Of a stretch of 64,000 nucleotides of DNA, positions 11,692 through 45,930 are shown one piece after another. The stretch comes from Folioceros fuciformis (lineage: Eukaryota), in NCBI GenBank assembly GCA_049999805.1, contig JBNGIO010006272.1, positions 1-64,000 on the forward strand. Reading direction: 5' to 3'. The notes beneath the pieces were generated by a model. That model saw nothing but the letters and a program-made list of their open reading frames with translations, was not told the origin of the DNA and ran no database searches. The position numbers were made by a program, and so were the translations under genes. Position 1 is the stretch's first letter, and each line of letters begins with the position of its first letter.

Positions 11692-14600
11692 ATGGCATGC
11701 CACTGCAGGCTTGTGCATTTTGCATGCCAAGTGGATGTGTTTGGACAGGTGCCTTGGACTCCGACGCTTGCACAGTGGGGGAAGGGGGAGAGGGCAGTGC
11801 AGTGTCATGCTGAAACCAGAGATGCAGGTGTTACTACTCCTCGTGGGGTGCAATGGCTTGAGAAACTTTGTGACCGAAATGTTGTCACTTGGACGGCCAC
11901 CATATCAGCCTTGTGTAAGGCTGGACGATGGCGGGAAGCTCTGGAGAGGTACCACCAGATGCTGGAGGACGGTGTGGAGCCCAGCAGGTCCACGTTTCTC
12001 AGCTTGCTCAAAGCTTGTGGCAGCTTAGCAGATTTGCAAGAGGGGAGGCGGATCCATGCTCATGTTGTGCGGTACAGATGGATTTCGGATGTATATGTGG
12101 CCACCACTTTGGTTGACATGTATGCGAAGTGTGGAAGCACGGCTGAGGCACGACTTGTGTTTGACGATTTGTGCCAGCGAGATGTCGTGTCGTGGAATGC
12201 CATGCTCGCAGGGTACGCTCAGCAGGAACAAGGACAGAAGGCAATGCAGCTCTACCGCCAGATGAGGAAGGAGGGGATCAGTCCCAATCATCGGACGTTT
12301 GTCAGCCTGCTGCAAGCATGTGGGTGCCTTGCTGATGCGGAAGAAGGGCTTCTCTTGGACGGACAGGTTATCAAGACGGAGGCACTCCATACGGGGAAGG
12401 CTGTACACCATGAAGCTGCACGGATTGGTTGCGAGTCCGATGTTTTTGTATGTACCACTCTTCTCCGTGTGTATGCGAGGTGTGGGAGCATCGTAGATGC
12501 TGAACAAGTGTTTAATACCTTGTCGCACCGCAATGTGGTGTCGTGGAGTGCAATGCTTGCAGCGTATGCTCAGCAGGCTCAAGGTGAAAGGGCTTTGGAG
12601 CTATTTGGGCAAATGCAAGAGGCAAGTGTCAGTCCAGACCATCAGACCATGGTCAGCGTGCTTCAAGCATGCAGTAGTCTGGCAGAAAAGGAGGAAGTTA
12701 TCCCTCTGGATGGACAGGCCATCAAAGTAAACTCACTTCAGAAGGGGAAGGCCGTGCATTCTGACATAGCAATACGTGGGTACGAAGGAAATGTGTTTCT
12801 GTCGAATAGTTTGGTCAGCATGTACACCAAGTGTGGGAGCGTCATCGATGCCGAAACAGTGTTTGACAGATTGTCGCACCGGACTGTGGTGTCTTGGACT
12901 GCGATGCTTGCAGGATATGCTCAGCTGGATGAAGGAGAGAAGGCTTTGAAGCTTTTTGATGAGATGCAAGATGCAGGAATTAGTCCAGATGATAGGACAT
13001 TCGTGAGCGCACTCCAAGCATGTGGAGCCCTTGCCGAAAAGGAAGATGGTCTTCTCTTGTATGGGCCCCCCACCAAAGTGGAGTCACTTTGGCGTGGGAA
13101 GCATTTACATGTTGCAGCAGCCAAAAGGGGCTACGAAGGGGATGTGTATGTTTCGAACACTCTGGTTTCTATGTATGCGAAGTGTGGGAGTCTCCCAGAC
13201 GCAGAAAAAGTGTTTCTCAGGCTATCTCAGCGTAAACTGGAATCATGGAACGCCATGGTGGCGGGATACTCGCAGCTGGGACAGGGCGAGAAGGCTTTTG
13301 AGCTCTACGGGCAAATGCTGCAACTGCACGTAGTGCCTAATCATCGCACCTTTGCTAGCTTGCTTCAAGCATGTGGTTGCCTGGCAGAAAAGGAGGAGGG
13401 TACTTTGGTCAATGGACAGACCATCAAGATCAAGGCGCTGGGTAAGGGGAAAGAAATACACGCTGAAGCTGTAAAGACTGGATGTCTCTCAGATCTGTTT
13501 GTTGCTAATTCTCTTGTTAGTATGTATGCAAAGTGTGGCAGGGTGACAGACGGTGAAGTGGTGTTTGATACAATGCCCAAGCGTAATGCGGTTTCATGGA
13601 GTGCGATGCTTGGAGCATATGCCCAACAAGGAGACGGAGAGAAGGCCTTGGAGCTCTATGCACAGATGCAAGAGGAAGGTGTAAGTCCAGATCATTGGAC
13701 CTTTGTGTGCTTGCTCCAGGCATGCAGTAGCCTTGCTGAAAAGGAAGAAAGCGTCATTGTAGGTCGGCAGTCCATCAAAGTGGAATCACTTCTTCAGGGG
13801 AAAGCGATACATGCTGAGGCCGTCCGACGGGGTTACGAGCCAGATGTATTTGTGGGCGCCAGTCTTGTTAATATGTATTCCAAGTGCGGGAGCGTCACAG
13901 ACGTGGAAAACACGTTCCCCACATTGTTGCAGCCCAATGTGGTATCATGGAATGCAATGCTTGCAGGATATGCCCAGCATGGTGAAGGAGAGAAAGCTTT
14001 GCAGATTTATGACAGAATGCGAACAGATGGGATAAGCCCAGATGATAGGACATTCGTCAACACAATTCAAGCATGTAGCAGCCTTGCGAGAATGGAAGAA
14101 AGCACTGTTTTAAACGGACAGTCCATCAAAGCCGAGTCTTTACGGAAGGGAAAGCAAATACATGTTGAGGCTGCTAAGTTGGGCTATGACAGAGATGTGT
14201 ATGTCTCCAACACGATTCTTAGTATGTATGCTAAGTGTGGGAGCATTACAGATGCTGAGAATGTGTTCTACTCGTTATCTGAGCGCACTTTGGTGTCATG
14301 GAATGCAATGCTTGCAGGATATGCACAGCAGGACCAGGGAGAAAAGGCCTTGGAGCTTTACAAGCAAATGCAACTCGAAGGTGTCGTTCCAGATGATCGA
14401 ACATTTGCCAGCTTGCTCCAAGCTTGTGGTAGCCTTGCTCAGAAGGAGGAAGACGCCATCTTGGATGGGCAGCACCTAAAAGTGCAGACGCTCCGGAAGG
14501 GGCAGGCGATACATGCTGATGTTGTGCATGCTGGTTATCAGTCAGATGCATTTGTTTGCAATGCTCTTGTAACAATGTACGCGAAGTGCGGGAGCGTTAG

Positions 14601-15642
14601 AGACGCACAAGACGTGTTTCACAGACTGTCTCATCGAGATGTGGTGTCATGGACTGCGATGATTGCAGGCTACACCCGGCAGGATGAAGGAGAAAAAGCT
14701 GAGCGATTGTATCACGAGATGCAAGCCGAAGGTGTTGAACCAGATGAGGTCACTTTGGTCTGTGTCCTACAGGCTTGTAGCAGCATGGGGTCTCTGAGTA
14801 AGTGCATTCAGATTCACCGTGAGGTTGTCAAGCGTGAATTTGAGAACAGTCCTATGGTCGCGACTGCTCTTGTCCACGCATACTGCCAGTGTGGGAGCAT
14901 GTTGCACGCTCGGAATGTATTCAAGACTGTTCCCCAAGGCGATGTCTGGGCTTGGACTGCGCTGATTGCCGGGTATGCCAGACAAGGACAACTTGAGCTC
15001 AGCACACGCTGCTTCCAAGAAATGTGTGTGGCAGGGGTACAGCCAAATGGGGTCACGTTTCTCTCTCTCCTGTGTGCGTGCAGCCATGCCGGGAAAGTCG
15101 ACGAAGGCCTGGAATACTTCGAACGCATGATGACGGACTACGGAATCGCTCCCGTGATGGAGCATTTCGCCAGCATGATCGACCTCCTGGGCCGTGCTGG
15201 TTTGTTCAAGAAGGTGGAGGACTTGCTTCAGCACATGCCGATGGAGCCGAACTCAGCCATATGGTTGTCGTTACTCGGAGCTTGCCGAAATCACGGCAAC
15301 GTTACACTGGGAAGACGCGCTTTCGATAATCTGATCCGGTTACAGCCAAAACAGGGCGCAGGCTACGTGCTGATGTCAAACATCTACGCTCATGCTGACA
15401 TGCCGGACCACGCGAAGCAGGTCGAGGAGCTCAGACAGAAAGCAAGTGCTTGGAAAAGACCTGGCCAGAGCTGGATCGAGCACGACCAAGAGGTGCACTC
15501 GTTCGTGGTAGGAGATCGCAAGCATCAACAGCACAAACGGTTGTACGCATACCTCGAGAAGTTGTGCAGGGAGCTGCAATATCAAGAAACGGGGACTGTG
15601 CAAGACACCATTCCACGCGCTTGCGGCCGTCTGCTCTCATGA
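11692..15642 (+). CDS. PLS-class pentatricopeptide repeat protein, E+ type (PG box, no DYW deaminase), intronless
   Basis: Recurrent MYAKCGS / VVSWNAMLAGYAQ / PDxxTFVSLLQAC motifs. E domain followed by WKRPGQSWIE...FVVGDR. No HxE/CxxC motif before the stop. Confidence 0.95.
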   Translation: MACHCRLVHFACQVDVFGQVPWTPTLAQWGKGERAVQCHAETRDAGVTTPRGVQWLEKLCDRNVVTWTATISALCKAGRWREALERYHQMLEDGVEPSRSTFLSLLKACGSLADLQEGRRIHAHVVRYRWISDVYVATTLVDMYAKCGSTAEARLVFDDLCQRDVVSWNAMLAGYAQQEQGQKAMQLYRQMRKEGISPNHRTFVSLLQACGCLADAEEGLLLDGQVIKTEALHTGKAVHHEAARIGCESDVFVCTTLLRVYARCGSIVDAEQVFNTLSHRNVVSWSAMLAAYAQQAQGERALELFGQMQEASVSPDHQTMVSVLQACSSLAEKEEVIPLDGQAIKVNSLQKGKAVHSDIAIRGYEGNVFLSNSLVSMYTKCGSVIDAETVFDRLSHRTVVSWTAMLAGYAQLDEGEKALKLFDEMQDAGISPDDRTFVSALQACGALAEKEDGLLLYGPPTKVESLWRGKHLHVAAAKRGYEGDVYVSNTLVSMYAKCGSLPDAEKVFLRLSQRKLESWNAMVAGYSQLGQGEKAFELYGQMLQLHVVPNHRTFASLLQACGCLAEKEEGTLVNGQTIKIKALGKGKEIHAEAVKTGCLSDLFVANSLVSMYAKCGRVTDGEVVFDTMPKRNAVSWSAMLGAYAQQGDGEKALELYAQMQEEGVSPDHWTFVCLLQACSSLAEKEESVIVGRQSIKVESLLQGKAIHAEAVRRGYEPDVFVGASLVNMYSKCGSVTDVENTFPTLLQPNVVSWNAMLAGYAQHGEGEKALQIYDRMRTDGISPDDRTFVNTIQACSSLARMEESTVLNGQSIKAESLRKGKQIHVEAAKLGYDRDVYVSNTILSMYAKCGSITDAENVFYSLSERTLVSWNAMLAGYAQQDQGEKALELYKQMQLEGVVPDDRTFASLLQACGSLAQKEEDAILDGQHLKVQTLRKGQAIHADVVHAGYQSDAFVCNALVTMYAKCGSVRDAQDVFHRLSHRDVVSWTAMIAGYTRQDEGEKAERLYHEMQAEGVEPDEVTLVCVLQACSSMGSLSKCIQIHREVVKREFENSPMVATALVHAYCQCGSMLHARNVFKTVPQGDVWAWTALIAGYARQGQLELSTRCFQEMCVAGVQPNGVTFLSLLCACSHAGKVDEGLEYFERMMTDYGIAPVMEHFASMIDLLGRAGLFKKVEDLLQHMPMEPNSAIWLSLLGACRNHGNVTLGRRAFDNLIRLQPKQGAGYVLMSNIYAHADMPDHAKQVEELRQKASAWKRPGQSWIEHDQEVHSFVVGDRKHQQHKRLYAYLEKLCRELQYQETGTVQDTIPRACGRLLS

Positions 15643-20183: not shown

Positions 20184-23100
20184 ATGGCGGTTTCAGGTAT
20201 GAGGGGGCTCTCGGTGTTCATCAGCGACGTACGGAATTGTCAGAACAAGGAGCAAGAACGCCTGCGGGTGGACAAGGAGCTGGCCAACATCCGGACGCGC
20301 TTCAAAAACGAGCGAGTACGTGACGTGCGTGGTTTGGGGTCGGAGTCGGGATTTTGCTAGCTTCTCCATCGACATTTTTGGTTGTGGGTCTTTGGAAGGA
20401 AGGCTGGAGGATCTGGGTTTTGGGAGGGCTGCGGCATCCTCCAACGTGTGTGCTGTTTTGTGGTGTTGCAGCATTTCAACTTAGTCACGACAGCCCGTGT
20501 TTGCATGTCAGCAGGGTCTAACACCTTACGAGAAGAAGAAGTATGTGTGGAAGATGCTGTATATCTACATGCTCGGTTACGACGTTGACTTTGGGCACAG
20601 GGAGACTGTTGCGCTGATCTCGGCTCCTAAGTATGCAGAGAAACAGGTCGGGACTCATCCTTTGTCTGTCCCGGCACATTCCTGGGATTTGCCCCTGATT
20701 TGGTTTGGTTTCCTGTCACTGATGCTCTATCTGATGTCGTCGGGTGCGTCCGAACAGGTGGGTTATATTGTTACGTCGTGCTTGCTGAACGAAAACCATG
20801 ATTTTTTGAGGCTCGTCATCAACACTGTCCGTAATGATATCATCGGCCGCAATGAAACTTTTCAGTGCCTGGCGTTGACCATGGTAATCCGTTTCTGTTT
20901 TTCTCTTTCCTACTAATTCTCGTCAGTCATTCCTTGCTGCAATGCATATCATGCTCTCAAGACAGCTGGTACCTTGCTGAATGAGGATGTCTCTTTGCCA
21001 CAAGCACTGGTGGTGATGATTTCGAGAGAGCAGAGAGGTAATCGTTTCGAGATTTTCGTATATGACGTCCTCCTGCCAACTGCAGGTTGGAAATGTCGGT
21101 GGCAAGGAGTTTTCTGAGTCATTGGCTCCCGATGTTCAAAAGCTTCTGGTGAGGATCGGCACGTACCTGCTTTCAAAAGAAGTTTGGTTGCTTTATATTC
21201 TGCAACCTATACTTCATGGGCCTTCTGTTGCAGATTTCGAGCAGTTGTAGGCCCCTCGTTCGAAAGAAGGCAGCTCTTTGTCTGCTTCGGTTGTATCGAA
21301 AGAATCCGGATGTTGTGAATGTTGATGGCTGGTAAGTTGGATTTGGTAGGCTCCTGTATGGTTCTCATCCGTGCATTCTTGCAAGCACACTGGAAGGCGT
21401 GTGTGCACAGTCTTGGAGCCAATCCAGTCATGCTTCCAATCGTTTATGGGTAACAGGGCTGATCGCATGGCGCAACTGCTAGACGAGAGGGACATTGGTG
21501 TACTCACTGCTGTCACGAGTTTACTTGTGTCATTGGTGGCAACCAGTCCAGAGGTGTATGGGAACTGCGTGCCTAAATGTGTCAAGATCCTTGAGAGGCT
21601 AACAAGGGGCCAGGACATTCCCCAAGAATACACTTACTATGGGATTCCATCTCCATGGTTACAGGTTTTCTTTCACTCCATCTTTTCCTTTGCTGCATGA
21701 GCACCGTATGGAACAAAAGGCAGCCTTTACCACAGAATCTGTAAAATGTATCAGTTTGGAATCACCAAGTTTCAAATCCTGCATAACCAACTATTCGCTT
21801 AGTTGATCTATGATGAATCCTATAGTCTGAAGGTGGATTGGGTGATTGTAAGGGCAGCCATCGTTTCTTATGCTTCACCATTTGCATATTACAGGTAAAG
21901 ACGATGCGCGTTTTGCAATACTTTCCAGCTGTGGAGGATCCAACAATTAGGAGGGCTCTCTTTGAGGTATCAGTCAACATCTTTCAATCTGCCTTTTCTA
22001 CAGACCTTGTGCCTGCGTCTAATTGAAAATTTGTGGGCTGGGTTATGCAGGTTCTTCAGCGGATAATGATGGGGACTGATGTTGTAAAGAACGTGAACAA
22101 GAACAATGCCTCCCATGCGGTTCTTTTTGAAGCTCTTGCTCTTGTAAGCAACAATCTCTGATGATACTGATGCTTCCTGCTGTATGTTATCAGCTCCGCT
22201 TTGTTGTGGATTTGCTGCGAGTCCTTTTATGTTTTCTGGTCGATCACCAGAACGTGGTCTTGGGGGTCTCATGCGTTGATTGCTGAAGTACAGGTTATGC
22301 ACCTGGATGCCGACAAGGACATGCTGTCGCAGTGTGTCACGCTGCTTGGGAAGTTCATAGCTGTTCGGGAGCCCAACATCAGATACCTTGGATTGGTACT
22401 CCTCCCAAATCAGCTCTTTGATGTGTTCTGAAGCTATCACCTCCATCAGTTCACCCTTGGCTGGTGAAGGTGCGCAGCGTATAATCCAGTATTTGCCATG
22501 CAGGAAAACATGACAAGAATGCTGCTGGTGGCAGATGTTCAAGACAGCATCAAGAGGCATCAAGCCCAAATTATCTCGTCACTAAAGGATCCTGACATCA
22601 GGTACTAAAACAGAGTATTACTACACTCAAATCTTTTCGCGGTTGAAATCTCTGTGATGGCTCGTGTTGATTTCCACTGGAATGGGACTCTCCAGCATAC
22701 GGAGAAGATCATTGGATCTGCTATATGGGATGTGTGACGTGAGCAATGCGAAGGATATTGTTGAGGAGCTCTTGGAGGTGATAATCATACCTTAGACACT
22801 CGTTCTGCATCTGGTATTTGACGGTACAGGTGTTAAACCTGCCTTCTGCATGTTGATGCAGTATCTTACAACAGCAGACTTTGGGATCCGGGAAGAGCTG
22901 GCTCTTAAAGCTGCGATCTTAGCAGAGAAGTTTGCTCCAGATGTGTCCTGGTAAGCAGATATTTGGTTGCAGGTTTATCTTCTCTCGTCCGAGCTGTGTT
23001 GATGTCTGGTTGTAGGTTTCACTGCATGGTTTGCCTCTCTCCAGACACTGGCACAGCAATGATCTGTAGATGTGGTGTGCCCTTCTTTCCCTGTCCGTGT

Positions 23101-26100
23101 TTTAGGTATGTGGATGTTATTCTCCAGCTCATAGAGAAAGCTGGAGATTTTGTGAGCGATGACATCTGGTACCGAGTCGTTCAATTCGTGACCAACAATG
23201 AAGATCTTCAGGTATTTGTCAGCCCATGTCTATGGTGAATGCAATCAGGAACAAAATTTTATATCACGTTTGGTAGGGCACCTTGAGGATGCCCTCCTTT
23301 CGTGGATCTCTCTTCGTGCCCATGTTTTAATTGCCTTCTTAGATACAGGCAGTTAAATTTGCATTGTAATGTGCAGGCTTATGCTGCTCAGAAAGCCAAG
23401 GAGTATCTTGATAAACCTGCCGTACATGAGACCATGGTGAAGGTGTGGCGAAACATATCATTTTTTTATCGTACATGTGAGTGGAAGTGTTAGATTCTTC
23501 GTATTGCTGTGTCTGGAAATTATTCATTTGGGAGTCTCATGGAACAGGTAGCTGGCTATCTTCTAGGCGAGTACAGTCATTTGCTAGCCAGAAGGCCTGG
23601 CTGCAGTCCGAAAGAGATTTTTGGGATCATCCATGACAAATTCCCGACAGTTTCGTATGTACACCTACCTTATTCTTAGCTAGTATGAAGTGACTCATGT
23701 TCGTACATTTGCATTCATGTGTCACATAATTATTCCAAGATTGGGTCAGTCGTGTCTTATGTTCCAACCTTTTGTTGCAGGACATCTACAAAGGCTCTGC
23801 TTTTATCAGCATATGTGAAAATTCTGATGCACTCACAGCCAGCAGATCCTGAGCTCAGAGATCTAGTCCTCTCTGTCTTCAGAAGGTCATAGCCAACTAC
23901 TCTTGTCTTTGATCCAGGAGCTCGACTAGGGGGATTTGTCGGTTTGAGCAGTACCTGCTTAATAGGCTTGCATAACTTAAGGCTTGTTGTGACTCCAGGT
24001 ATGAGAGCTTCATTGATGCTGAAGTGCAGCAGCGTGCTGTCGAATACTTTGCCCTTACACAGAAAGGAGCACCTATGGTGGACATCTTGGCAGAAATGCC
24101 AAAGTTCCCAGAACGTCAGGTACTATTTGATTTGTTAGCCACTGTAGCCAATGTATCTCTTCCACGATGTGCAATTCTAAAGCTGGTGTGTTCTCTTGGC
24201 AGTCTGCTCTCATTCGCAGAGCTGAAGACACTGAAAGTGATTCTGCTGAACTGAGTGCAACGAAAGTGAGGTTACAACAACAGACGTCAACTGCTGTGGT
24301 CCTAGCAGACAAGGTTCCATCCAATGGCACCTCTCATCACCTTCCAATAAGTCGGCCAACAGTTGCTGCTCGAAGTGTTGTAAGTGTTACTGCTCCTGAA
24401 GTTTTTAGCTAGGGTAACGGTACGATCATTGTTGGGGAGCTTTGCAAGGTGCAACCTAAATGAATTTTTCTGAAGACTTGCTTAGATTGCTGTGTAATCA
24501 GATGGTTTTTTCTGTGAACAGAAGAACCCTTTGCATGAGTGAGAAGAGCGATGTCTTCTGAAATTTTGATTCATGCCTGTATCTGAATTCACATTCCAAA
24601 TGTGGCTGCAGGATCGACCTGGAGTGTCTGACCAGGATCGGCATGTGCCTTATTCCAATGGGACTTCGGCAGCTCAATCTGGTGTCCCACCTCAGCCCGA
24701 GGCACCTGCCCGGGTTGTTGACACAACTGCGGATCTTCTTGGAGATTTGCTTGCTCCTCTTGCCATTGAGGCTGCGCCTGGGTCCATGGCGTCCCCTTCA
24801 ACAATACCAAATGTTATCCTGTCACTGGAGGCACCTCCAGGACCTTCTGCTGTTAGCGGTGGTGGTGTGGGCGATCCATTAGCCCTAGCACTTTACGAGC
24901 AGAGTTCCACTGTGCAGGTGAAGCCCATGTCTTTCAAGGCAATATGTATGAGGCTCAAAATCATCTTCAGTGCATTACATATCACCGCATGTGTGCATGA
25001 TGTTGTCGTTATTCCCAAGGGTGGTGCAAGTGTGAGATGACTTTTGTCATTTCTAACCATGAAATTGTGTTGGCTTGTCATGTCCTTCGATACAAGCAGC
25101 CTATAGGTAGTGTTGCTGAATGGTTCCGGGCTCTCACATTGAAAGACAGTGGCATACTGTATGAGGACCCCTACATACAGGCAAGAACGTTCGAGAAGTA
25201 TTTAGTACGGACAGTGTTGCACTTGTGTATCAGTTGCTTCTGAGTGTGACGAAGGTTTTTTTTGTTTAGAGTGGGATGTTGGGACTGAGCCCGTACGGGA
25301 CCTGCAGATTGGTATTAAAGCAGAATGGAGAGGTTCTTTGGGTCGGATTGTTTTCTTCCTCGGCAACAAGAGTACAGGGCCACTGCAAGCAGTTCGTGCT
25401 TTGTTTCTTCCTCCTCGACATCTCCGGGTTCAGCCATCACCTCTTCCTGAGAGTATTCCTCCCAGGGCGCAGGTCCTTCACCCTTACAGTACAAACTGTT
25501 TCTTTCTTCCTGAATCTAGCATTCTTCTCCTACATCACTTTCCCTTTTGTTGCGACTGACTTGTTGAAAGTTTGTGATCACAGGTGCAGTGTCCGGTTGA
25601 TGTTGCCTGCATTACTGCAAGCAGAGAGCTTCCTATGTTCGACTTCTCATACACAACGTCAGCTATTCCTGTAAGTATTCTTCAGTTTTGCTTCTTTACA
25701 TCGCTCATGAGCCGAAAATATCCTGACAAATTCTTGGTATAGGTGAACCTGAAGTTAAGACTTCCTGTAGTCATCGCCAAATTTCTTCAGGCCTCTCCGA
25801 TTTCACCAAATGATTTTGTTGTGCAATGGAAAGCTCTTGTTGGACCTCCCACAAAGCTGCAGGAAGTTGTAAGCCTTCACCGGATGTTGGGTACCTGCAG
25901 CATGTGTGGCTCGTGTACACATCGTGTTGGTAATTTCTCTTGACGATTTCTCTTGACGTAATAATGCAGGTTCGTGGAGTGCGTCCAATTCCACTCGTCG
26001 AAATGGCAGAGCTATTTACAAGCATCCATATCGCTGTTGCCCCTGGGCTTGTGAGTACATCAAGGCCCATAATAAGGATTGTCTGTGTCATGTTATAGCT

Positions 26101-26638
26101 AAAAGGAACGAAGTAGCTTGTCTCTACTGGAACGTTTAAATATGTGGTTGAATTGTTTCAGGACCCGAACCCGAATAACATTGTCGCAGCTGCAACTTTC
26201 TTCTCTGAGGCTGGAGGTGCCATCATGTCTCTGGTGAGTCCTAGATGATGGCGTGACAACGCCTACCCACTACTCACCTGCTCTTGTCATCACTAACAAG
26301 AACTGTGGGTCACAGATCCGGGTGGAAACTGATCCCGCTGACAGAACTCAAGTGCGACTTACAGTGGCAACTCCAGATCCCGCTGTGACATTCGAGTGAG
26401 TCTCGCATACAGTAGGCAGCGTGTGCTATGCTCTGCTCTTGAGAACAACTCTCTTATGGGTTGTGTCATGTTTTGCAGGCTAAAAGAGTACATCAAGGAC
26501 CATTTAGTGGATATCCCATCGGAAACGGCTGCATTTATACCCACGCCAGTCGCGCCTGCCAGTGCCCCAGCCCCTGCTCCTACGCCACAATCTTTGGGTT
26601 TCACGGGCCCTGCAGCTGCACTTGCTGGTCTACTGTAA
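20184..26638 (+). CDS. AP-2 adaptor complex alpha subunit (alpha-adaptin), more than 20 exons
   Basis: [72 protein letters not shown], and an ear domain; stop TAA at 26638. Confidence 0.96.
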
Positions 26639-27663
26639 CTTCTATGTTGTGTTGCTCAGTCTGGTACCCTGTCCTCAGTGTCACTGGCATAATGCTTATG
26701 ATTTCACTGCAGAGATTTATGCTTTATCGTGCAAGTGGACATCAGGAATTGCATGACCCAGTGACATCTGATGATGCGGTCTGGAACGGCCGTGTATGTT
26801 TGTGCCACATGCCTGTCAAATGCCTAATCTTCAGCCTCGCCAGGTGCATGGAACCTGTAACCATGTTTGCAGGAAATAGATGTCATTCTTGAGGGCACCT
26901 GTAAGAAAATGCAAGCCTGCCCGCTGCCGATTTATATTCTCAAATTGTATTGGTACTTCTGCTTGGTCTCTTGTTCCATTCCTTGTAACTGGAGTGTCAG
27001 TTTCGTATCCATGGCCTAGTGATTGCCAAGAGCATAGGGAGCCGGGACTTCAGGGTTGTCCGTTTTGTCAAGAAAATGAAATCTTCTGTGCTGAGCTACA
27101 GCGCCGATATCCTGAGGTCCCTCACGATAAGGCGAGACTTTTGGAAATTGTTTGTGTCGAAGTAAATTTGTTTAACCACAGATATAGATCTTTAACCGTA
27201 GCCCTACGGAGAATGATTGGTATCATTTGTCACCGCGTTGGATGCGGACCGTGTACCCAACAGCCTTCCTACGCCAGTTGTCTGACGCCAGTGTAAGATG
27301 CTTCTCTGGAACGGTTCGCAGTTGGATCTCCGTTTTCAGGACTTTCGCAGACTGCACTGTCGAAGTCTCAGGTTTGGCGATGGCAGAAGCATGCCTCATC
27401 GCTCAGGTGCTGCCGATTCCCTTCCTCCTGCCCCTCGGCTAGCTTGTGCCCGTGTGAGGCCAATTTCTTTCTCAAGCCGTGTGCGAATGACCACAGCGGC
27501 GATTTGGTTTCTGGTTGCGCACATCATTGGACCGGTTCCGCTTTGTCGAAACTGGAAAACCGGTCGACTCTGCAGGATCGCCGCCAGCAAGGTAGCATTG
27601 CTTCAGATCTGGTCGCAAATTCCGCCAGCCAGGACCTGAAGGCCTGCAGTGGACAAGTTCAGG

Positions 27664-29138
27664 ATGATTCAGCTCCCAGGATTGCGACGGTATGCGCGCC
27701 TGGAGACGAAACTTGAGCTTCTTCCTGTGACACAATTGGGGAAGAAGAAAAAGGCAGGGTGTCGGACTTGGATGCGTTTTGATTCTTCAGGGGTATCGGA
27801 GAGGATGGAGCTGGACAGAAATACTCTCGTGAGAATGGCCGGACTCTCTGCTCGCGATCTTCGAATTCTAGGACCTATATTTGCTCAGTCATCTTGCATC
27901 CTCGGTAGGGTGCTAGGTCAAGCCGCTGAATCCAGCCATCCTCTGTGGACCTTCAGCTTCCGTCCTCTGCTTTCCTCTCACGCGTGTGATGTGCTTGTGA
28001 TGCAGCAAGGGAACGAGCCATGGTGGTAAACCTGGAATTCATTAGGGCTATTGTGACGGCGGAAGAAGTTTTCCTTCTCTGGTCTTCCAATCAGCAGGTC
28101 ACGAAGTTCGCGGATGAGCTCAGTACGCAGTTGCCGAAGGTAGACTCTCCTCGTGTTGCTGAAGCAGCAGGAGATGGCATGCCGGAACAGCTTCCGTTCG
28201 AGTTTAGGGTTTTGGAGATTGCTCTTGAGGTGGTGTGCAGCTATTTAGACGCCAAGGTATACAATTTGGAACGGGCCGCACATGAAGCTATCGAGGCCCT
28301 GACTGAAAGTGTGAGCACTGAAAAGTTAGAGTCCGTCCGAACTGCGAAGAATGAGCTAACACGTCTGACTGCTCGCGTCCAGAAGGTGTTGTGCCTCTCC
28401 AAATTTGTCAAGATGTAGCCAGGCAGTTTTATGCAGTGCTTGACGTCTAACTTCCATCCTTTCCTTGTGGCTAAGGTCAAGGAGGAGCTTGAGCAGCTGC
28501 TTGATGATGACGAGGATATGGCGGATCTTTATCTTACACGTAAAATGGTGCAATGGCAAAATGTGGGCTCTCCACCAGAAGCTGAAATCTCTGGGAACGA
28601 ACTAGTTGCCCGACCCCAACCTGCTGCTGCGGGCTTCCGTGGCTCTGTAAGTGTAATCACGGCTACCACAGGGAGTGAAAACAGTGTGGACGAATTGGAG
28701 ATGCTTCTGGAGCTCTACTTCATGCAGACAGACCAAACTCTGAACAAGCTTGCTAGGGTAAGTTATCACTAGCCATTCATGTAACTTGTCCTGAGATGGG
28801 ATACAGGCGTATGCTTATGCGGGAACTCTTCCTGAATTGCTCGTCTCGTGCAGCTGAGAGGGCACATTCACGATACTGAAAACCTTGTTAACATCGAGCT
28901 GGACAACAAACGCAACAATCTGATTCAGTTGGAACTGATAGTGACAGCGGCATCTATGTCCATTGCCTTTTGTACTGCTGTCTGCAGCGCACTGAGCATT
29001 AATCCACCTGTCTCTTTGTATCATGCTGACAATGAGACCCCCTTTCGTTCCGTGGCGATTGGGGGGCCTGTGCTCAGTTTCCTCATTTTTACTCTTGTTA
29101 TATCCTATGCTCGCAAAAGGAAGCTTATCGGAGCTTGA
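27664..29138 (+). CDS. MRS2/CorA-family magnesium transporter-like protein (4 exons) with SIN replacing GMN
   Basis: RTWMRFD...ARDLRILGP...ILGRERAMVVNLEFIRAIVTAEEV, LPFEFRVLEIALE, DDDEDMADLYLTRK, ELEMLLELYF, NIELDNKRNNLIQLEL, then two TM helices. Confidence 0.93.
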
Positions 29139-29229
29139 TGACCTCGCGTCTTGGCGGACCAAGCTTTTGCTGTTCGGGTTTTGTAGTTTACTGCCCTCGA
29201 TCCAAAGCGACCAAACAGGGCGCCTCAAA

Positions 29230-29480
29230 GTTATGCCCAACAAGGCGTCTCACAGTCAGGCCCAACAAGGCGTCTCACAGTCAGGCCCAACAGGACGCCT
29301 CACAGTCAGGCCCAACAGGANNNNNNNNNNACAGGACGCCTCACAGTCAGGCCCAACAGGACGCCTCACAGTCAGGCTCAACAGGACGCCTCACAGTCAG
29401 GCCCAACCGGGTGCCTCACAGTTAGGCCCAACATGGTGCCTCAAAGGTAGGCCCAGAAAGGCGCCTCACAGTTAGGCCCA
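29230..29480. repeat. 25-bp minisatellite (CAGTCAGGCCCAACAGGACGCCTCA) spanning an assembly gap
   Basis: Multiple tandem copies lie on both sides of the N-run at 29321-29330. Confidence 0.9.
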
Positions 29481-30431
29481 GTCGCCAACCTGGAATGTGG
29501 TTTGGATGCCAAAATAGGTTCGGGAAAGGCCAGTTCGAGCGAAATCGGAAATGGTTGATTCCCGTCTGCAAAGAATTGCCCGGCCCATTCATGGAAGCGT
29601 GAATTCCCCTGCTTTCTTGCGTCTACTTCTTTTCTCTAAGCAATTGCTTGTCATTCTCTCCAAGTACTTGCTTGTCTACACAAAGGGCTTTTGTACCCGT
29701 CTGTTTCATGTTTGCCTAATTCCAAGACTTTTCGCGCCTACCTCCAAGTATTTGCTTGTCTCTAAGGGTTTTACGGTCGTATGCTTGAATCTCTTCCGAA
29801 GTCTTGTTAGCCCTAAAGAGCTCGACCATTAGCTAGCACAGACTAAATAGACTTGGATGCTTTATCTCTGCGATCAACATTAACTCGCATCCATTTTTCC
29901 TTTTCGATTGCCAAGCATTGGTCATGACACTCTGCATGGACTACAAGAAATTCTTCACGCTTCCATGGAAGCTTATGTTGCATTAAACTCAAGTTGCAGC
30001 TTGTCTATGTGGACGTATTGATCCACCTCTCTCTTGAAAGTCTTGCCCTACAAGAGCAGAGATGATGAAGATGATGTGATGATGCCCAAACCTGGTGGGT
30101 CCAAACTTGATCCAAACTAATTGGAAAGCTTGGCTCATGGATCGCATTGCTATATGCCTTATTAGTGTAGAATGTTGTCATTTTCTTTTAGTGCTAGCCA
30201 CCACGTAGCCAACACCCCCAAGTAATTCATTTGCAGTGCCACTCCAGTCTCCTTCAAGGAAGGCGAGTGGGTTTCAACACAAACGACTTTTATAGAGCGG
30301 CATTCAGGCACACCTTCTTTCTTGAAGTAATCGTCAAGTAGTCATGTACTTCCTCTTGTCTAGCTACATCCTTCTACCTTAGTGGTGACAGTCCTTAGTC
30401 CCTTTAGCAAGGAGAGAGGTTTATAGGCATG

Positions 30432-30611
30432 ATCTACTATGATGGTGTACAATAGTTGTTCAACATAATCCTTCGCACACAACCTCATCTATGTTGCTTC
30501 TCAAGACGCACAGCTCACATAATCTACTATGATGGTGTACAATAGTTGTTCAACATAATCCTTGGCACACAGCCTTATCTATGTTGCTTCTCAAGACGCA
30601 CAGCTCACATA
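30432..30611. repeat. 90-bp tandem direct duplication
   Basis: ATCTACTATGATGGTGTACAATAG...CAGCTCACATA occurs at 30432 and 30522 with few mismatches. Confidence 0.9.
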
Positions 30612-34271: not shown

Positions 34272-36541
34272 ATGGTTCTTGGGACTGCCTGGTTGGGCCT
34301 CTGTTGGGACCTGCTGAGCATGGGGGTGGCGCATGGTTCCGGGCATGGACAAGGCAACAGTGGGTTTGACGGCGCAACGGGTCTGGATCCGGCAGTGGGT
34401 GGTTCGGAGAGGATGGCGTCCATTGTGGGAGCGTCCACCACCCAGAGGCACCCTGGCCCATGGAGGGAGCTAGGATTCAGAGCTCTGGTCGAAGAGATTT
34501 TGTGGCACGGGGGCTCAGCTGGAGATGCCTGGCTCACCAGTGCGTCCCATCAGGTGAAAGAAGAGAGAACTTGTGTACCTGTGTGTGGTGAATAACCGTT
34601 GATTACAAGGTTTGTTTGGGTGAACCTTGTAAGAGCGGTGAGCATGTGGGTGCTGGAGTTGGCGCAGGTGGCACAGGTGCTCTTGACGCTGCCTTATTCG
34701 TTTGCTCAGCTGGGATATGCGTCTGGCATCATCTTTCAGCTCTTTTACGGCCTGGTGGGATGCTGGACCTGCTTCTGTGTAGCAGCGCTGTATGCGGAGC
34801 ATCGTGTTCGGCAGCAGAAGGATGGCGTGACGTTGAAGAATCACACTGTTCAGGTAGGTTGGGGTGAGAGTAATCAGCCGTTTGCTTCAAAATGAGTGAC
34901 AAATCATTATAAGCATCGCTTGCCTTGACAGTGGTTTGAAGTGTTAGAGGAGCTCCTTGGTCGGCGCTGGAAACTTGCTGGGCTCCTTGTCAACTGCCTC
35001 TACCTCTTCGCTTCTGGCACCATTCAGATCATAGCCTGTGGAAGGTAAGCGTTACAAGCCAGCCATGAGCTAGCTAGCCCTTGCCAAGGGCTGGCTCGAT
35101 GAATAAAAACCGTGGAGGCATGGCTGAGGTGCTAAAGAACTGAGCCAGGGATTTGCACATACAGCACCGTCTACCTTGTCAATGACAACTTGGACAAGAG
35201 GACATGGACGTACGTGTTTGGGGCAGGCTGTATGCTGAGTGTCTTCATCCCTACCCTTCACAACTTTCGAGTCTGGTCCTTCACGGGCCTGTTCATGACC
35301 ACCTACACTGGCTGGTACATGACCATCGCTGCTCTTATCCACGGCCAGGTGAGCCTGCCGGCTTCTCTCTCGCTTGCTTCCACTCCCATCATCCAGCCAG
35401 ATGTTAATGTTCCTGGACCTGTTTTCTCCAGAAACCTAGCCCTGTGAAGCACACAGGACCGCAAAACCTTGTCCCGTTTTTCACGGGAGCCACCAACATT
35501 CTCTACACCTTCGGCGGCCATGCGACCACAGTGTGAGTCTCCATGGGCCGCCGCAGATCCCTCCCATCCACGGTTTGTGCTTGCTGGTGACTGTTGTGCG
35601 CAAGCGTGCAGAGAAGTGATGGACTCCATGTGGAAGCCACAGAAGTTCAAGTGGGTGTACGTGCTTTCCACCCTCTACGTCTTCACACTGACACTGCCGT
35701 CCGCCAGCTCAGTCTACTGGGCTTTCGGTGACAACATGGGTTCCATTCCCAACGCTCTGTACGCCCTACCTCGGACCCCATTCCGGGACACCGCTGTAGT
35801 CCTCATGCTCATCCACCAGGTACACCAACAACCGCTGACGTGTGAAGTCTCATTCCCTCATCTCCCTTTCGTTCTGATTCCGCCATCCCCAGCAACATCT
35901 GCAGGACTGTGCATCCACCATGTCATGTTTGTGCAGAAGAACCTCCACGTGAATCAATACCAATCAATTTGCTGTGGTTTCCTCCCAGTTCTTCACTTTT
36001 ACTGTCATCAGCATCCCAATTTACACAGTGTGGGAAAAGCTGCTGGGCGTACACACCTCAATAGCCAGTAAATTCTTCCTCAGAGCGGCAATCAGGCTCC
36101 CGGTCGGCCTCTTCATCTGGTTCGTTGCTCTAGCAATCCCCTTCTTCGGCCCCATCAACTCTGCCGTGGGAGCCTTCCTCGTCACCTTCGGAGTGTACAT
36201 AATCCCTGCCGCAGCCTTCAACGTCTTCTACTCCAGCCCATCTGCCCGAGAGGTACATGACTCTTTAGGGAAGAGTTTCCTCAAACCCAACAACATAATT
36301 CCGTTGCAGGGACTGACCGACACACCCGCAGAACGCCGTGGAGAAGCCCCCGTTCTTCATCCCTAGTTGGAGAGCCATCTTCGTGCTCAACACCTTCATA
36401 GTGATGTGGGTCTTCATCGTGGGATTCGGCTTCGGCTGCTGGTCCAGCATCACCAATTTCGTCAAGCTCGTGCACACTTTTGGCCTCTTCGCCAAGTGCT
36501 ACCAGTGCCCCGTCACAGACGAACACCTGAGCCTGCCGTGA
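34272..36541 (+). CDS. AUX1/LAX-family auxin influx carrier-like, divergent paralogue A (8 exons; start could be 34320)
   Basis: LWHGGSAGDAW..|VAQVLLTLPYSFAQLG, LDKRTWTYVFGA, TGATNILYTFGGH, MWKPQKFK, PFFGPINSAVG, TFGLFAKCYQC; GT-AG introns. Confidence 0.93.
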
Positions 36542-37291
36542 ACAGGAACTTTGTTGAATTCATGGCGGTGCAGTCACAGCAATGTGTAATTTGCCAGTCA
36601 AATCGTACACATCTGGTATGCGCACTTTCGGGCGGCCCACCCTGTTGACCGAGATTTACTCTCACAGGACCTGATTATGTACGTCTCCAGGAGTTCTTGC
36701 TCGCGTGACCCACGCCAACACAGTGTGAACACGGCACCACACGCCTGACCATGACTGCATGCGCTGCCACTACGACCCCAGTCGCGGCGCTTGTCGGTTA
36801 GAATCGATGCATAGACTCCAGTCCGGTCAAGCGAATGTCTTCGGAGCTAGTCGGACAAAGCCGGCAGTGGGCTCTCTCTATCTCCTTCCTAGGAGCCTTG
36901 TCTCGTCCAAACCGAAAGGCGTTAGGCCTTCTACGAGGCGGTGGGATATTGACCTCCTTTACAGCAGAGCCCGAGAAGGAGTGGATCATTCGTACAGCCA
37001 TGCGCAGTCGCACTGAGATTGAAATTCCTACCCCTGGAGGATGGATATCCGATGCCCTGGCCTGCGCAAAAGCGGCTTTCTTTCGGTAGGCTGAGGAATG
37101 CTGAATCTTTTGACTCCTGTACATGGGCTGGACCTCCCCTGGCACTGGCCAAACCTGAAGAGTGAAGGAAAAGCTGCGGCTGGCAAAGCGAGCTTCGAGC
37201 TCGAGTTCCGGCAGCTTATGAGGCAGATGATGAAGACTCTCCCTGGGATATCCTCAGCCTGAGTCTGGGCGGGGGCTTGAAGGTCGTGGCC

Positions 37292-39325
37292 ATGGGGGCA
37301 GGAGAGCGGAACGGTGTGGTGCCTGCGGACTTGGAGGGCTCTGGGTGGACAGGGGGAGATGGCAGCCGGCACGACCAGATCGAAGAGGACGTGGGAGATG
37401 GAAGGGGAAACGTTAAGGGATCGTCCCGTGGTAGTTTTTTGTACTGGGCTCTGTGGAACGGAGGCTCCAGCTTTGATGCCTGGCTGAATGCAGCGTCCAC
37501 GCAGGTGGCCCAGGTGCTGCTCACTCTGCCTTACTCCTTCTCGCAGCTGGGAATGGTGTCCGGCATCTTCTTCCAGATCTTCTACGGGATCATGGGCACC
37601 TGGACTTGCTACCTCATCACCTGCTTATACGCCGACTACCGCTCCAGGAAGGAGAAAGAGAACCCAAGAGCATTCGAGAAGCACACCATTCAGGTAATGC
37701 CCAGTCGTGGATTGCGTTCGGTTTATGTGTCGCAATTCGATCGTGACATTGAAACATGAGTTCCACGAGGCTGATGGCTCATTGCTCTGCAGTGGTTTGA
37801 AGTTCTGGGTGGACTTCTCGGGCCCCGATGGAGGATGGTAGGCCTGGTGTTTAATGGCTTCGTGCTCTTCTGTACTGCAACCATCCAGCTCATAGCTTGC
37901 GCGAGGTTAGTATTCGTAATCAACCATCATCTCCTCCTACCTAATTGCGATGTCCATGACCGACACTGGAGAAGCCCACAAAACCTCGGGGCCATGGCAG
38001 CAATGTATACTACCTCAACAACCATCTGGACAAGCGAACATGGACATACATCTTCGGGGCGGGCTTCATGTCCACCATACTCGTGCCCGCTGCGCACAAC
38101 TACCGTGTGCTGTCAGCCATGGGCATCACCATGACCACATACACTGCCTGGTTTCTCACCATTTCTGCTGTCAAACACGGCCAGGTGCGATGTCGATCCC
38201 CATTTCACTTCCCTCTCCTTCCATTCCGTACCTCGTCTTCATCTAACTGCCGCTACTGGAGCGCCTTCGCATGCAGATCGCCAACGTGCAGTACACGGGA
38301 AGCCACCATGGCAAAGTGGCCTACTTCACAGGAGCCACCAACATCCTCTACACCTTCGGCGGCCATGCCGTCACTGTGTACGCATCCAAGCACATGCCTG
38401 CCCATGAAAGGTCGTCTTCCCCGGCTGCGATGAATGACTAACACTCGCAAACTCTGTCCAGGGAGATCATGCACTCCATGTGGAAGCCCAGGAGATTCAA
38501 GGTGGTGTACCTGGTGGCCGTCCTCTACATCTTCACCCTCACAATCCCGTCTGCAGTTGCCATGTACTGGGCGTTCGGGGACAAGCTGTTCAAGAACGCA
38601 AACGCCTTCGCCGTGCTGCCCAAAACCAAGTGGCGGGACGCTGCCGTCATCCTCATGCTGGGCCACCAGGTGAGATCCAAGCCACCACACGTGCCCCGCG
38701 ACTCACTTCCCACCCCTCTTGCGTCTTCCTTCCTCGCTTGCCACTCACAATCTCCGTCCCCCCCTGCCACACCACCAGTTCTTCGAATTCGGCATGGTGA
38801 GCCTGCCCTTGTACATCATGTGGGAGAAGCTGGTGGGCGCGCACGGCAAGCACTACCTGGTGAGCACCATGTCGCGGGTGCCGGTGGTGCTGGCCATGTG
38901 GTTCACGGCGCTCATGATTCCCTTCTTCGGGCCAATCAACTCCGCCGTCGGATCCCTTTTCGTCTCCTTCGGCGTCTACATCATCCCTGCCGCCGCCTAC
39001 ATCACCTTCTACAGAAACGCCTCCGCCCGCGCTGTAAGATGCCGCTTATTCGAATTCATTGGTTTGTACGATCTCAGCTCCAACCGGACGTCGCTGACCA
39101 ACGCCTGGACCGAATCCTGACGTTGTGCAGAGCGCCGTGGAGAAACCCCCCTTCTTCCTCTTCAGGAGCTGGTATACAGTGTTCGCTGTCAACATCGTGA
39201 TTGTCTTGTGGGTTGTTGTTGTCGGGTTCGGCTTCGGCGCCTGGGCCAGCGTCACCAACATTGTGGACCAGATCCACACTTTTGGGCTCTTCGCCAAATG
39301 TTTCCAGTGCCCCAAACGCTCGTGA
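37292..39325 (+). CDS. AUX1/LAX-family auxin influx carrier-like, divergent paralogue B (7 exons)
   Basis: LWNGGSSFDAWLNAASTQVAQVLLTLPYSFSQLG, LDKRTWTYIFGA, YFTGATNILYTFGGHAVT, PFFGPINSAVG, TFGLFAKCFQC. Confidence 0.93.
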
Positions 39326-40300: not shown

Positions 40301-41610
40301 CCTCTAACATTCATGCTAGATAACAATCTAAGAAGGATATCATAAGTGGTGTCATCTAATGTAATGACAAGATGCTTGGTACTTGTCCTAATCTTCTAGT
40401 CATACACATTATAATTATTAATTTATATTTTTATAAAAATATTTCTCCTCATATTATTAATAAACTCAAAATGACATAATTACCATTATTGGGTTTAGGA
40501 TTTAGGATTTAAAGTCCTTGGAACGTTTTTGAAAAAAATAACTATAATAATCGAAAAAAAAACCCCTTTCCAGCAAAGAAATGTAAGGGATCTTATGCTG
40601 GTTTTTGAAGACGAATAACTTTAGAGACAAAGGTAGTGCAACAAAGTTCCGTCCTCATTCGGCGTCAGTAAAATTCTTCCTCCCTCACTACGTAAACGTT
40701 ATTCTTAAATTCATATAATAGAATTCTTGTTGGTATATGGTAGATAAGATTCTACCCACAGACAACACGGATATATGACGCGTGCCGGCATTGGTTTAAC
40801 GGCCCATGGTTCTGATGACGGACTTCCCGGGTTGGTTTGAAACCTCCTCCGAGACGTTGGTCTGGGCTCTTAACCTCATCCGTGGGTCGGGTGTATTTTT
40901 AGGAAGTCGGGAGCTGAGTTGTAGAAGCTGCTAGTCGAGTCGAGCAAGAAGGATCGGACATTGATGCGGAGGATCATTGTGCGTGCCGGCAAGAGCGCAT
41001 TGCATCACAAGTTCGTTCTTCATTTGCTACCAGCAGCGGAATCACAGACACTTTGCTTCACGGAGCCTGGCCAGCTCTGATCGCGTCAATCACTTCTGGT
41101 TTCTCCTGAGGTGAGAGCTGATTCTCGCTGTGTTCTGCGATTGACGCTTATCGCCAGTGCTTTCTGGCAGGAGGGAAACGGGTGTGTTGCTCTGGCTTCT
41201 GCTTTTTAGAACGGATCTTGTAAGCTTGACTGGTGGAGGACGGAGGTGGCCAGGCCGATGTCTCCCGGAGCTCGCTTCCGTTGGATCTGACGGGGAGGGG
41301 GGATGGTTAGGTTTCCGAGAGCGCGTCCAGCCTTGCTGTGTTGGAACTCTGTGGTGAAGGGGAATTTGTAGAATCCAGATCTTGCTGTGGAGACTGGCTT
41401 GAGAAGCTTGTCTGGGCTGGCAGCGGGGGACTTTGTGGCAGCTGAATTGAGTGGTTTGTGTATGGATAATGTCGAACTCGTTGGTGCTGGCTCCCTGTGG
41501 TCGTAGCACGGGAGTTTGGAGTTGCGGGGCCCTGTGTGGAGTAAAGCTTGGTTTGCCGACTGTGTGATCTGTTTGAAGCGGGAGGAGGCGGACGAGGGTA
41601 GGTAGTAAGC

Positions 41611-42975
41611 ATGGTGGCTGTGTGGGAGTACCGCATCCCACTGCCTTTCACGTTGGAGGAGTATAAGACTGCGCAGTTGTACATGGTGGCGAAGATCAGT
41701 GCTATTGAGTCCAAGGGCAGCGATGGGGATGGGGTTGAGGTGCTGAAGAACGAGCCCTATGTGGATGACAACAGGGAAGGGCAGTACACGCACAAGATTT
41801 ACCATCTTGCTAGCAAGCTTCCAGGATGGCTTGTGGCGCTTGTGCCAAAAAAGGCGTTGCTTCTGGAGGAGGAGGCTTGGAACTCGTACCCTCACTGCAC
41901 CACCGTAATCAAGTGTCCCTTCTTCAACAAGTTTCGCCTGATCCTTGAGACCACACATGTAGCAGACTGTGGGACGACAGAGAACGCCCTGAAGTTGGAT
42001 GCGAAGACGTTGAAGAAGAGACATGTGGAGTTTATTGACATTGCGACGGACCCTGTGGAGAATTACGTTGAAGAAGAAGATCCGTCCAAGTATTCTTCTG
42101 TCAAGACGGGGAGGGGGCCACTCTTGCCTGGCTGGCAGAAGCAATGTAGGCCTATGATGTGCGCATACAAGCTTGTGACAGTGGATGTGCCTTACTGGGG
42201 TTTCGGCTCTCGCTTGGAAAAATTCATTTCTAAGCAGGCTCAGCGGAAAATTATGCTGGAGGGTCATCGGAAGTGTTTCTGCTGGATGGATGAATGGCAT
42301 GGTTTAACAATGGAGGATATTCGAGTTATGGAGGAGGAGACAGCACAGGCTATTAGGAGGGCTCGTGCCACAGCCCTACGGAGGCATGGCTCAGACGCTG
42401 GGGAATTGGTAGAAGATGCCACTGAGGAGGACCACTGTGGGAGCCCTTCAACAGCTGACTTGCTCCGGGAAGATCGCGACGCTGCTCCTTTGAGACTGCG
42501 AGAACTCGTTACTAATTCAACCAGAAGCTCCAGAAGCAATTCCAGGAACAGTTCCAGAGAGCTCACTAACTATGCAAGGCACCCTAGTCTTCTCGGATCT
42601 GCGGCTGCTCTTGGTGTACCTTTTGCTTCTGGGTCAGATCTTCAGCAGAGGCAAGATGGCACTCCCCGCTCGCCGTCACCACTGAAGTCTCCTATGGGGA
42701 AGCCGCTGTCACAGTCTCCTCCAACATCGGTATCTCATGCCGGTGGACTTGTTGAACCTCTTCACACTTTTGGATCGGCGAGCCCATATTTTGATGATTG
42801 GAAAGCAGAAGCGAAGGAAGCTGAGAGTGACTCAGATGCAGCTGAACTCGAGAACTGCGTGGATGTGCTGGACAGAGCTATAGCATGGGCAAAGTCAAGA
42901 GCCAAGTCCAAAAAGCTGGCCTCCAAACAGCAGGGGCCTCAAGTACATCCCATGGAGACTATGCTAAGTCCATGA
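41611..42975 (+). CDS. START-like phosphatidylinositol transfer protein (PITP/RdgB-type) with Ser-rich C-terminal tail; intronless CDS
   Basis: EYRIPLPFTLEEY..AQLYMVAK, GDGVEVLKNEPY, GQYTHKIYHL, EEAWNSYP, KTGRGPL, MCAYKLV, HRKCFCWMDEWHGLTMEDIR. Confidence 0.92.
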   Translation: MVAVWEYRIPLPFTLEEYKTAQLYMVAKISAIESKGSDGDGVEVLKNEPYVDDNREGQYTHKIYHLASKLPGWLVALVPKKALLLEEEAWNSYPHCTTVIKCPFFNKFRLILETTHVADCGTTENALKLDAKTLKKRHVEFIDIATDPVENYVEEEDPSKYSSVKTGRGPLLPGWQKQCRPMMCAYKLVTVDVPYWGFGSRLEKFISKQAQRKIMLEGHRKCFCWMDEWHGLTMEDIRVMEEETAQAIRRARATALRRHGSDAGELVEDATEEDHCGSPSTADLLREDRDAAPLRLRELVTNSTRSSRSNSRNSSRELTNYARHPSLLGSAAALGVPFASGSDLQQRQDGTPRSPSPLKSPMGKPLSQSPPTSVSHAGGLVEPLHTFGSASPYFDDWKAEAKEAESDSDAAELENCVDVLDRAIAWAKSRAKSKKLASKQQGPQVHPMETMLSP

Positions 42976-45702: not shown

Positions 45703-45799
45703 GGCTTCCTGACAACAGCTGTCCCTGCCCAATGCGGTCGTCCCGTGCCACAGCTGCGCAATGCCGGATACGTCAGAGCAATTAGCAGAGTTCAAACGG

Positions 45800-45930
45800 A
45801 AAGGCGAGGCGAGGCGGAACGGGACGGCGGGCGAGGCCCGGCGGGGCGGGTCTGGGCTGGGCGAGGCGGGGCGGGGCGAGGCGGGGCGAGGTTGAGGCGA
45901 GGCGAGTGGACGAGGCGGGCGAGCGCGAAG
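45800..45930. repeat. GC-rich GGCGA/GGCGG pentamer low-complexity tract upstream of LAX-C
   Basis: Read directly in the sequence. Confidence 0.7.

Follow-up and report, generated by a model that had tools for sequence, protein, structure and literature searches.

In MRS2 channels, the Gly of the Gly-Met-Asn (GMN) filter contributes a main-chain oxygen and not a side chain. For the plant members, sorted into clades lettered A to E, we take clade D to be AtMRS2-4/MGT6 together with AtMRS2-6/MGT5. At the mouth of human MRS2, the hydrated Mg2+ is met by five N362 side chains and by the G360 main-chain oxygens (passages of PMC10404273 and PMC10462007). Exchange of the filter Asn for Ala cancels Ni2+ uptake by a fungal Mrs2 (passages of PMC11919701), whereas N362A merely halves the currents of human MRS2, which are cut sharply by changes at D329 (passages of PMC10462007). 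Single GMN substitutions can abolish transport (passages of PMC4613352). The variants in print are AMN, GIN, and GVN (passages of PMC4613352, PMC9948656, and PMC13048270). For the monocot AMN members (OsMRS2-4, OsMRS2-5, ZmMGT6, and wheat TaMGT1), weak or no complementation is described (passages of PMC9948656 and PMC4613352): ZmMGT6 rescues a Salmonella Mg-uptake mutant, though less strongly than GMN members do, and neither the rice AMN proteins OsMRS2-4 and OsMRS2-5 nor the GIN-bearing OsMRS2-8 complements yeast (both as cited in passages of PMC9948656). The Gly of GMN is regarded as all but invariant and serves as a selection criterion in surveys; in one eukaryote-wide tree, GMN-bearing sequences alone were kept and the others discarded (passages of PMC13022745).

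The window analyzed here is a stretch of 64,000 nucleotides from Folioceros fuciformis, which carries on its plus strand a four-exon gene with one open frame of 395 amino acids. By direct reading, positions 28995 to 29003 (AGCATTAAT) are AGC ATT AAT, giving S-I-N as residues 349 to 351. Coding probably begins at ATG 27664, the first in-frame ATG after an in-frame stop at 27637 to 27639. Exon 1 (27664 to 27904) contains an intact RDLR motif (27853 to 27864), named as a regulatory motif of Mrs2 in passages of PMC11919701. By the Pfam model PF22099, exon 2 (28006 to 28385) encodes the remainder of the alpha/beta domain and a helical hairpin, and exon 3 (28476 to 28757) an acidic LDDDEDM stretch, a linker, and an ELEMLLE helix. 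In the AlphaFold2 model, exon 4 (28854 to 29138) encodes the stalk helix, TM1, the filter loop, TM2 (29040 to 29117), and the stop. The three introns, at 27905 to 28005 (101 nt), 28386 to 28475 (90 nt), and 28758 to 28853 (96 nt), are all of the GT-AG type. At the column of intron 3, the moss orthologue P0270 has an insertion in the family alignment that looks like intron read-through.

We examined the assignment of this gene to the MRS2 family. PF22099 (MRS2-like) matched the exon 2 frame at 52.2 bits and the exon 3 frame at 32.3 bits, both above the curated cut-off of 27, which places the product in the MRS2/MGT family; no match to PF22099 was obtained on the exon 1 or exon 4 frames. In the pairwise alignment with human MRS2, S-I-N fell without gaps on G360-M361-N362, a match that is weak by itself (E 1.3), and the family alignment agreed in placing S-I-N at the G-M-N position. 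A profile of 23 clade members found Mrs2 structures at E values of 7e-26 to 3e-16. The model of exon 4, built using a family alignment (mean pLDDT 78.5), contains helices at 2–48 and 63–88, that is, a long stalk/TM1 helix, a short loop, and the C-terminal TM2, with the Ser of S-I-N as the final residue of the TM1 helix. The top five Foldseek hits of this model were all MRS2 structures (TM 0.67 to 0.75), none of them significant (E 0.86 to 2.7). The protein retains the RDLR motif, the filter Asn, and the pore Asp and Arg rings at 28902 to 28913, which align with D329 and R332 of human MRS2. The canonical 2-TM-GxN/GMN channel has G-M-N, or at least G-x-N, at the end of TM1. Here S-I-N stands in that place, and therefore the gene is filed as a variant and not as a canonical GMN channel. 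These results bear out the first-pass annotation, which had described SIN in place of GMN in a gene with intact frames and splice sites.

The codons were then compared with sequencing reads. Run X3, which has the same species label and comes from a different sample and study, yielded a single contig from which precisely the three introns are missing and which has no differing letter across 27100 to 29100, the S-I-N codons included. DNA run X2 is unspliced and has no other letters over 27678 to 29264; its sample is a possible source of the assembly, so it is not independent. X3 is called a transcript because of its precise intron loss against the unspliced X2 DNA, and we infer that X3 and X4, runs with no RNA on record, are both RNA. 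The gene is transcribed and spliced, although the contigs carry no expression level. The source genome is a draft assembly (87 Mb in 7240 contigs), and an N gap lies 180 nt behind the stop, yet it is scarcely conceivable that S-I-N arose from an error of sequencing or assembly or from a wrongly chosen exon: the same codons occur in the spliced contig of the independent sample and in X2, and the two codons would each require an error of their own. The agreement of X3 and X2 refutes an assembly error. RNA editing that would give a GMN transcript was likewise unsupported, X3 containing no other letters.

The same gene is present in a related species, represented by a spliced run (X4) and a genomic run (X5) from one sample, with the same exon layout and ~88–95% identity by exon. 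Introns 1 and 3 are skipped in X4, which has no bridge across intron 2. The first piece of the relative has 13 gap letters, all upstream of the ATG; in exon 4 two gap letters offset each other and the stop lies at the same place, and none of the coding pieces of X4 has a net indel. In X5, a second contig matches part of exon 3 (28543 to 28724) with 18 differences and 12 gap letters and is possibly a partial duplicate of this region.

We next investigated the position of the protein among plant MRS2 proteins. The best database matches were proteins named MRS2-4, with 47–58% identity over exon 2. In a 25-row tree, the window protein fell in clade D with support of 100/100, and an earlier tree gave this grouping an SH-aLRT of 99; support dropped to 80/75 (91/98 for a wider group) after two very long rows were added. 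Within clade D of the 25-row tree it was placed between the moss-liverwort and vascular groups without resolution, on an end branch of 0.95, the longest in the clade D tree (median 0.14). Its union with bryophyte clade B was rejected (p-AU 3e-6), and its union with moss and liverwort clade D was compatible with the data (p-AU 0.385). These results indicate that the gene is a clade D (AtMRS2-4/MGT6-type) MRS2. The domain order and the C-terminal two-helix end are those of plant MRS2/MGT clade D proteins, from which the window protein differs in its long branch and altered stalk segment. ZntB is recognized by a G-I/V-N motif together with ZntB ancestry, but here Ser comes first and the protein is nested in plant MRS2. 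ZntB (GIN/GVN), CorA, and human MRS2 (both GMN) share the fold and all keep the Gly that is Ser in the window protein. The middle Ile is shared with ZntB, although ZntB is a distant proton-coupled branch and the ancestry of the window protein is that of an MRS2.

Searches for close orthologues gave none: 0 of 51 candidates among longer proteins with the exon 4 query, a best database identity of 58% over the whole exon 2 query, and 0 relatives in 592 pattern matches in a metagenome scan with exon 4 peptides. When a bryophyte alignment was used for a second metagenome scan, 80 loci were recovered, of which 45 had no readable TM1 exon and 5 were cut by introns; the remaining loci read GMN (26), AMN (3), and SMN (1, 96% identical to a Sphagnum protein), and a hornwort-like locus was absent among the 80.

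The filter residues were compared across clades. Among the 120 rows of the exon 2 search, 106 read GMN, one SMN (Sphagnum), one AMN (Asparagus), and one SIN (Acacia pycnantha), and 11 were unreadable; GMN was thus present in 106/108 readable non-Sphagnum matches, in contrast to the SIN of the window protein. A further set of 149 rows (97 unreadable) added SMN from Hevea and Closterium, SLN from Forsythia, and 10 rows with AMN. Bryophytes were covered by using the C-terminal portion of the Sphagnum orthologue as the query. Among its best 120 of 1552 matches, the top 8 were of bryophyte-type clade D and 7 of these had lost the Gly, 6 as SMN (Sphagnum, an unnamed moss-like protein, Calypogeia, Marchantia paleacea, and two Riccia) and 1 as CIN, from a Physcomitrium pair whose other member is GMN. 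The other 112 rows were of clade B, a label given by name and by seven placements in the tree, and Gly was kept in 111/111 readable rows (106 GMN, 5 GVN). SMN was also found in Marchantia polymorpha and three further Sphagnum species. The window protein resembles these moss and liverwort proteins (Marchantia P0409/P0274, Riccia P0275/P0276, Calypogeia P0271, Sphagnum P0001, and Physcomitrium P0406) in having Ser or Cys at the Gly position. The Cys-Ser-Ala just upstream of its filter is shared with Marchantia and Riccia, most rows having Gly at that Ser. Most moss and liverwort rows keep the Met and an acidic EYIDDTEDY stalk segment, which is altered in the window protein.

The filter Asn was invariant in 23/23 aligned clade D rows. 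In the 25-row tree seven changes were required at the first motif position, and the direction of change therefore cannot be read from the tree; a single origin of Ser in bryophytes was not rejected in a topology test. The monocot AMN members are also alike in having lost Gly and kept Asn, and the Canna and Asparagus AMN proteins fall in the same clade as the window protein in the 25-row tree, but they have Ala and not Ser, keep the Met, and have a separate origin inside the angiosperms. These comparisons suggest that clade D is the place of repeated Gly replacement in plants, that S-x-N is the usual state of bryophyte clade D in a small sample of six named genera and the window gene, and that S-I-N arose at least once more, in Acacia. 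The first-pass annotation had called the loss of both Gly and Met unusual. This holds for the family as a whole but not for clade D, in which Gly is often replaced; rather than a one-off double loss, the window gene has a Ser common to moss and liverwort clade D, with only the change from Met to Ile added here. Its proviso that close orthologues might all retain GMN was not borne out, 6 SMN and 1 CIN being found among the 8 bryophyte matches. Five unnamed MRS2 proteins with AMN (P0188, P0191, P0201, P0226, and P0241) form a separate group adjoining a GMN protein of Apatococcus and probably represent a clade of green algae.

With most of the subscription literature lying outside the search, neither a description of SMN or SIN in a plant MRS2 nor a functional study of the moss and liverwort SMN/CIN proteins, which are database entries, came to light. 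None of the best literature matches listed treated Anthoceros and MRS2 together, and the partly available main text of a paper with a Marchantia-containing MRS2 tree lacks the term "SMN" (PMC8733655). The bryophyte S-x-N series is apparently undescribed. Interest lies less in the single gene than in this series, which contains it: natural S-M-N and S-I-N filters are test material for the contributions of Gly and Met to permeation, and one SMN member, in the model liverwort Marchantia polymorpha, is directly testable. The series could also show whether, in early land plants, the MGT6 clade served a different function. Should the members of the series turn out to be merely weaker Mg channels, the result would be modest, namely one more tolerated variant beside AMN.

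We then examined selection by comparison with the related species. The base-by-base comparison made 40 of 152 difference rows visible, all outside exon 4. The 23 visible coding differences, all in exons 1–3, comprised 12 synonymous and 11 non-synonymous changes at 283 synonymous and 902 non-synonymous sites, giving an omega of ~0.29 (binomial p 0.003 against neutrality). A dN/dS near 1, which the first-pass annotation had named as the mark of decay, is rejected for these 23 differences in exons 1–3. The cytoplasmic part is under purifying selection. Exon 4 differed from the relative at 38/303 bases, exon 2 at 26/362, and exon 3 at 13/283; the difference between exon 4 and exons 2–3 together (39/645) was significant (p 0.001, or p 0.005 if five differences are assigned to the UTR). 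Intron divergence, roughly estimated by subtraction, was ~33 substitutions in 287 nt, close to the ~12% of exon 4.

The window protein departed from the consensus at 10 of 98 core columns, defined as those conserved in 97 vascular and 8 bryophyte rows. Five of the 20 core columns in exon 4 were affected and 5 of the 78 elsewhere (p 0.028). The exon 4 departures were E304G, D311N, Y312L, Q328E, and W389K, the first two of which remove acidic stalk residues. The same count for the bryophyte rows was 0–5, except for Physcomitrium CIN (15/113), these counts being lowered because the rows have close kin in the set. In the Sphagnum SMN orthologues, exon 4 differed at 4, 8, and 5 of 91 residues and exon 2 at 1, 6, and 2 of 127. 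Acacia SIN differed from a GMN relative at 19/92 residues of exon 4 and 4/127 of exon 2, and the Physcomitrium CIN branch was 0.31 against 0.12. Exon 4 was thus the most variable exon in Sphagnum SMN and Acacia SIN, but not in liverworts. In the window gene, the divergence and departures of exon 4 fit a relaxed constraint on the pore; the pore part appears to be either relaxed or being remodelled.

Taken together, we put at about even the chance that the product is a functional channel subunit for divalent cations, attenuated in activity and carrying a serine-type filter of old origin. A conducting pore, less efficient or less selective, is the likeliest outcome because Ser should still be able to offer a main-chain oxygen at the Gly position. 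Ser and Ile might stiffen or narrow the pore mouth; the pentamer would pass Mg2+ (and Co, Ni, and Zn) at a lower rate or with looser discrimination, and the main load of Mg uptake would fall to the GMN paralogues. For such weaker flux, ZmMGT6, an AMN protein of clade D, would be the analogy. The independent spliced contig, the conserved layout, the omega of ~0.29, the kept Asn, Asp, and Arg, and the shared Ser argue for a working channel. The failures of the rice AMN and GIN proteins, the loss of transport that single GMN substitutions can cause, the long branch, and the exon 4 departures argue against it.

Shifted selectivity, one of the two roles proposed in the first-pass annotation, would mean a filter that favors Zn, Co, Ni, Mn, or Ca over Mg; it is unlikely, although the Ser is retained across mosses and liverworts, the pore-facing changes cluster in exon 4 (Q328E, E304G, and D311N), and the quicker change of the pore exon is also compatible with positive selection. 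The middle Ile matches the GIN of the zinc transporter ZntB (passages of PMC4613352), a likeness on which the first-pass annotation had drawn. However, this analogy is weak, since Mg, Co, Ni, and Zn were all transported in liposomes by ZntB as well as by two CorA proteins (passages of PMC6972854), and the middle residue alone therefore does not set selectivity. Human MRS2, with GMN, is itself described as non-selective (passages of PMC10462007), GVN occurs in 5/111 otherwise ordinary clade B matches among the best 120 of 1552, and one Physcomitrium orthologue is plain GMN. In a related scenario, which is possible but on balance doubtful, clade D began as an S-x-N subfamily with a job unlike that of GMN Mg2+ channels, either another cation preference or the tuning of heteropentamers. 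S-x-N in the zygnematophyte alga Closterium (SMN), liverworts, mosses, and this gene would then be the older state, vascular plants and one Physcomitrium copy would have returned to GMN, and SIN would be the most derived form. The Closterium row in question has a branch of 2.21 and comes from a poorly predicted, repetitive gene model.

The retention of the filter Asn and of the pore Asp and Arg also bears on two further readings. The regulatory role proposed in the first-pass annotation, that of a non-conducting or modulatory subunit assembled together with GMN paralogues to tune or damp the flux through them, appears distinctly improbable given these residues, even though the same genome offers at least seven GMN-bearing CorA/MRS2 loci as candidate partners, constraint is stronger on the cytoplasmic exons than on the pore exon, and a heteromeric CorA is described in Cupriavidus (passages of PMC6972854). 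Hetero-oligomers of MGT6/MRS2-4 are not claimed in the titles and abstract openings of the best literature matches, and the passages on yeast Alr2 in PMC3125163 show low activity and not a regulatory role. Early decay, with the gene still transcribed and its pore drifting under relaxed selection in this lineage, is a slim prospect for the same retained residues. Frame and splice sites are intact in two species ~8–12% apart in DNA (exon 4 of the relative being judged by length and stop), no coding piece of X4 has a net indel, omega is ~0.3 in exons 1–3, and a fast exon 4 is also seen among the Sphagnum SMN orthologues. What decay would explain is the long branch, the closeness of exon 4 divergence (~12%) to the rough intron estimate, and the fast evolution of both other Ile-bearing clade D genes (Acacia SIN and Physcomitrium CIN); a divergent GMN gene of the same genome, C6178, could moreover be a paralogue.

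Searches of the same genome gave at least seven other CorA/MRS2 loci, and 7/7 read FGMN. One of them, C5789, is a separate CorA/ZntB-like gene. C6178 (~273000 to 277000, minus strand) is a very divergent MRS2 with a tree branch of 4.43, in which an acidic insert of ~350 residues separates the alpha/beta domain from the helical part. In the tree with the very long rows it fell loosely at the base of clade D, and the window gene is therefore perhaps not the sole clade D copy; C6178 could be its paralogue, the positions of C6178 and Closterium at the clade D base being unsure because long branches meet there. Two closely similar clade B genes, C5925 and C644, one intronless (a 416-codon frame) and the other with introns, are a probable pair of retrocopy and parent. 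Beside the MRS2 paralogue on C5925, positions 2 to 397 encode a DYW-deaminase domain with a GRP ending, from a PPR gene; GRP marks the hornwort DYW:KP variant, linked to U-to-C editing in hornworts (passages of PMC9478123). Taken as a lineage marker, this ending points to a bryophyte source that is probably a hornwort.

Within the window, the plus-strand region from ~20187 to 27663 holds an alpha-adaptin gene (Pfam Alpha_adaptinC2) whose stop, at 26638, precedes the MRS2 gene by 1 kb. Of the 5721 nt of the X3 contig, 1714 fall on 27100 to 29100 and ~4000 continue upstream, a length near that of a spliced adaptin mRNA plus spacer. This suggests read-through or overlapping UTRs, and the contig need not equal a single transcript; the contig of the relative has just 339 nt before position 27512. 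An open stretch of 117 codons (27286 to 27639, plus strand) is in frame with the MRS2 ATG and is closed by a stop 24 nt ahead of that ATG. A net indel of +7 nt in the related species makes it improbable that this stretch is a conserved coding extension. Behind the gene, a 25-nt tandem repeat of ~10 copies (29214 to 29480) starts 75 nt after the stop and includes the N gap (29321 to 29330), and a 90-nt duplication occupies 30428 to 30611. Three genes of the amino-acid-permease family lie between ~35400 and 46000 (PF01490 at 35448 to 36071 and 37166 to 39200, plus strand, and at 44167 to 45987, minus strand), presumably resembling AUX1/LAX auxin influx carriers, with a phosphatidylinositol transfer protein gene (41602 to 42975) in their midst. 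Two long single-frame PPR genes with an E motif are located at 11683 to 15642 (plus strand) and 53740 to 56688 (minus strand).
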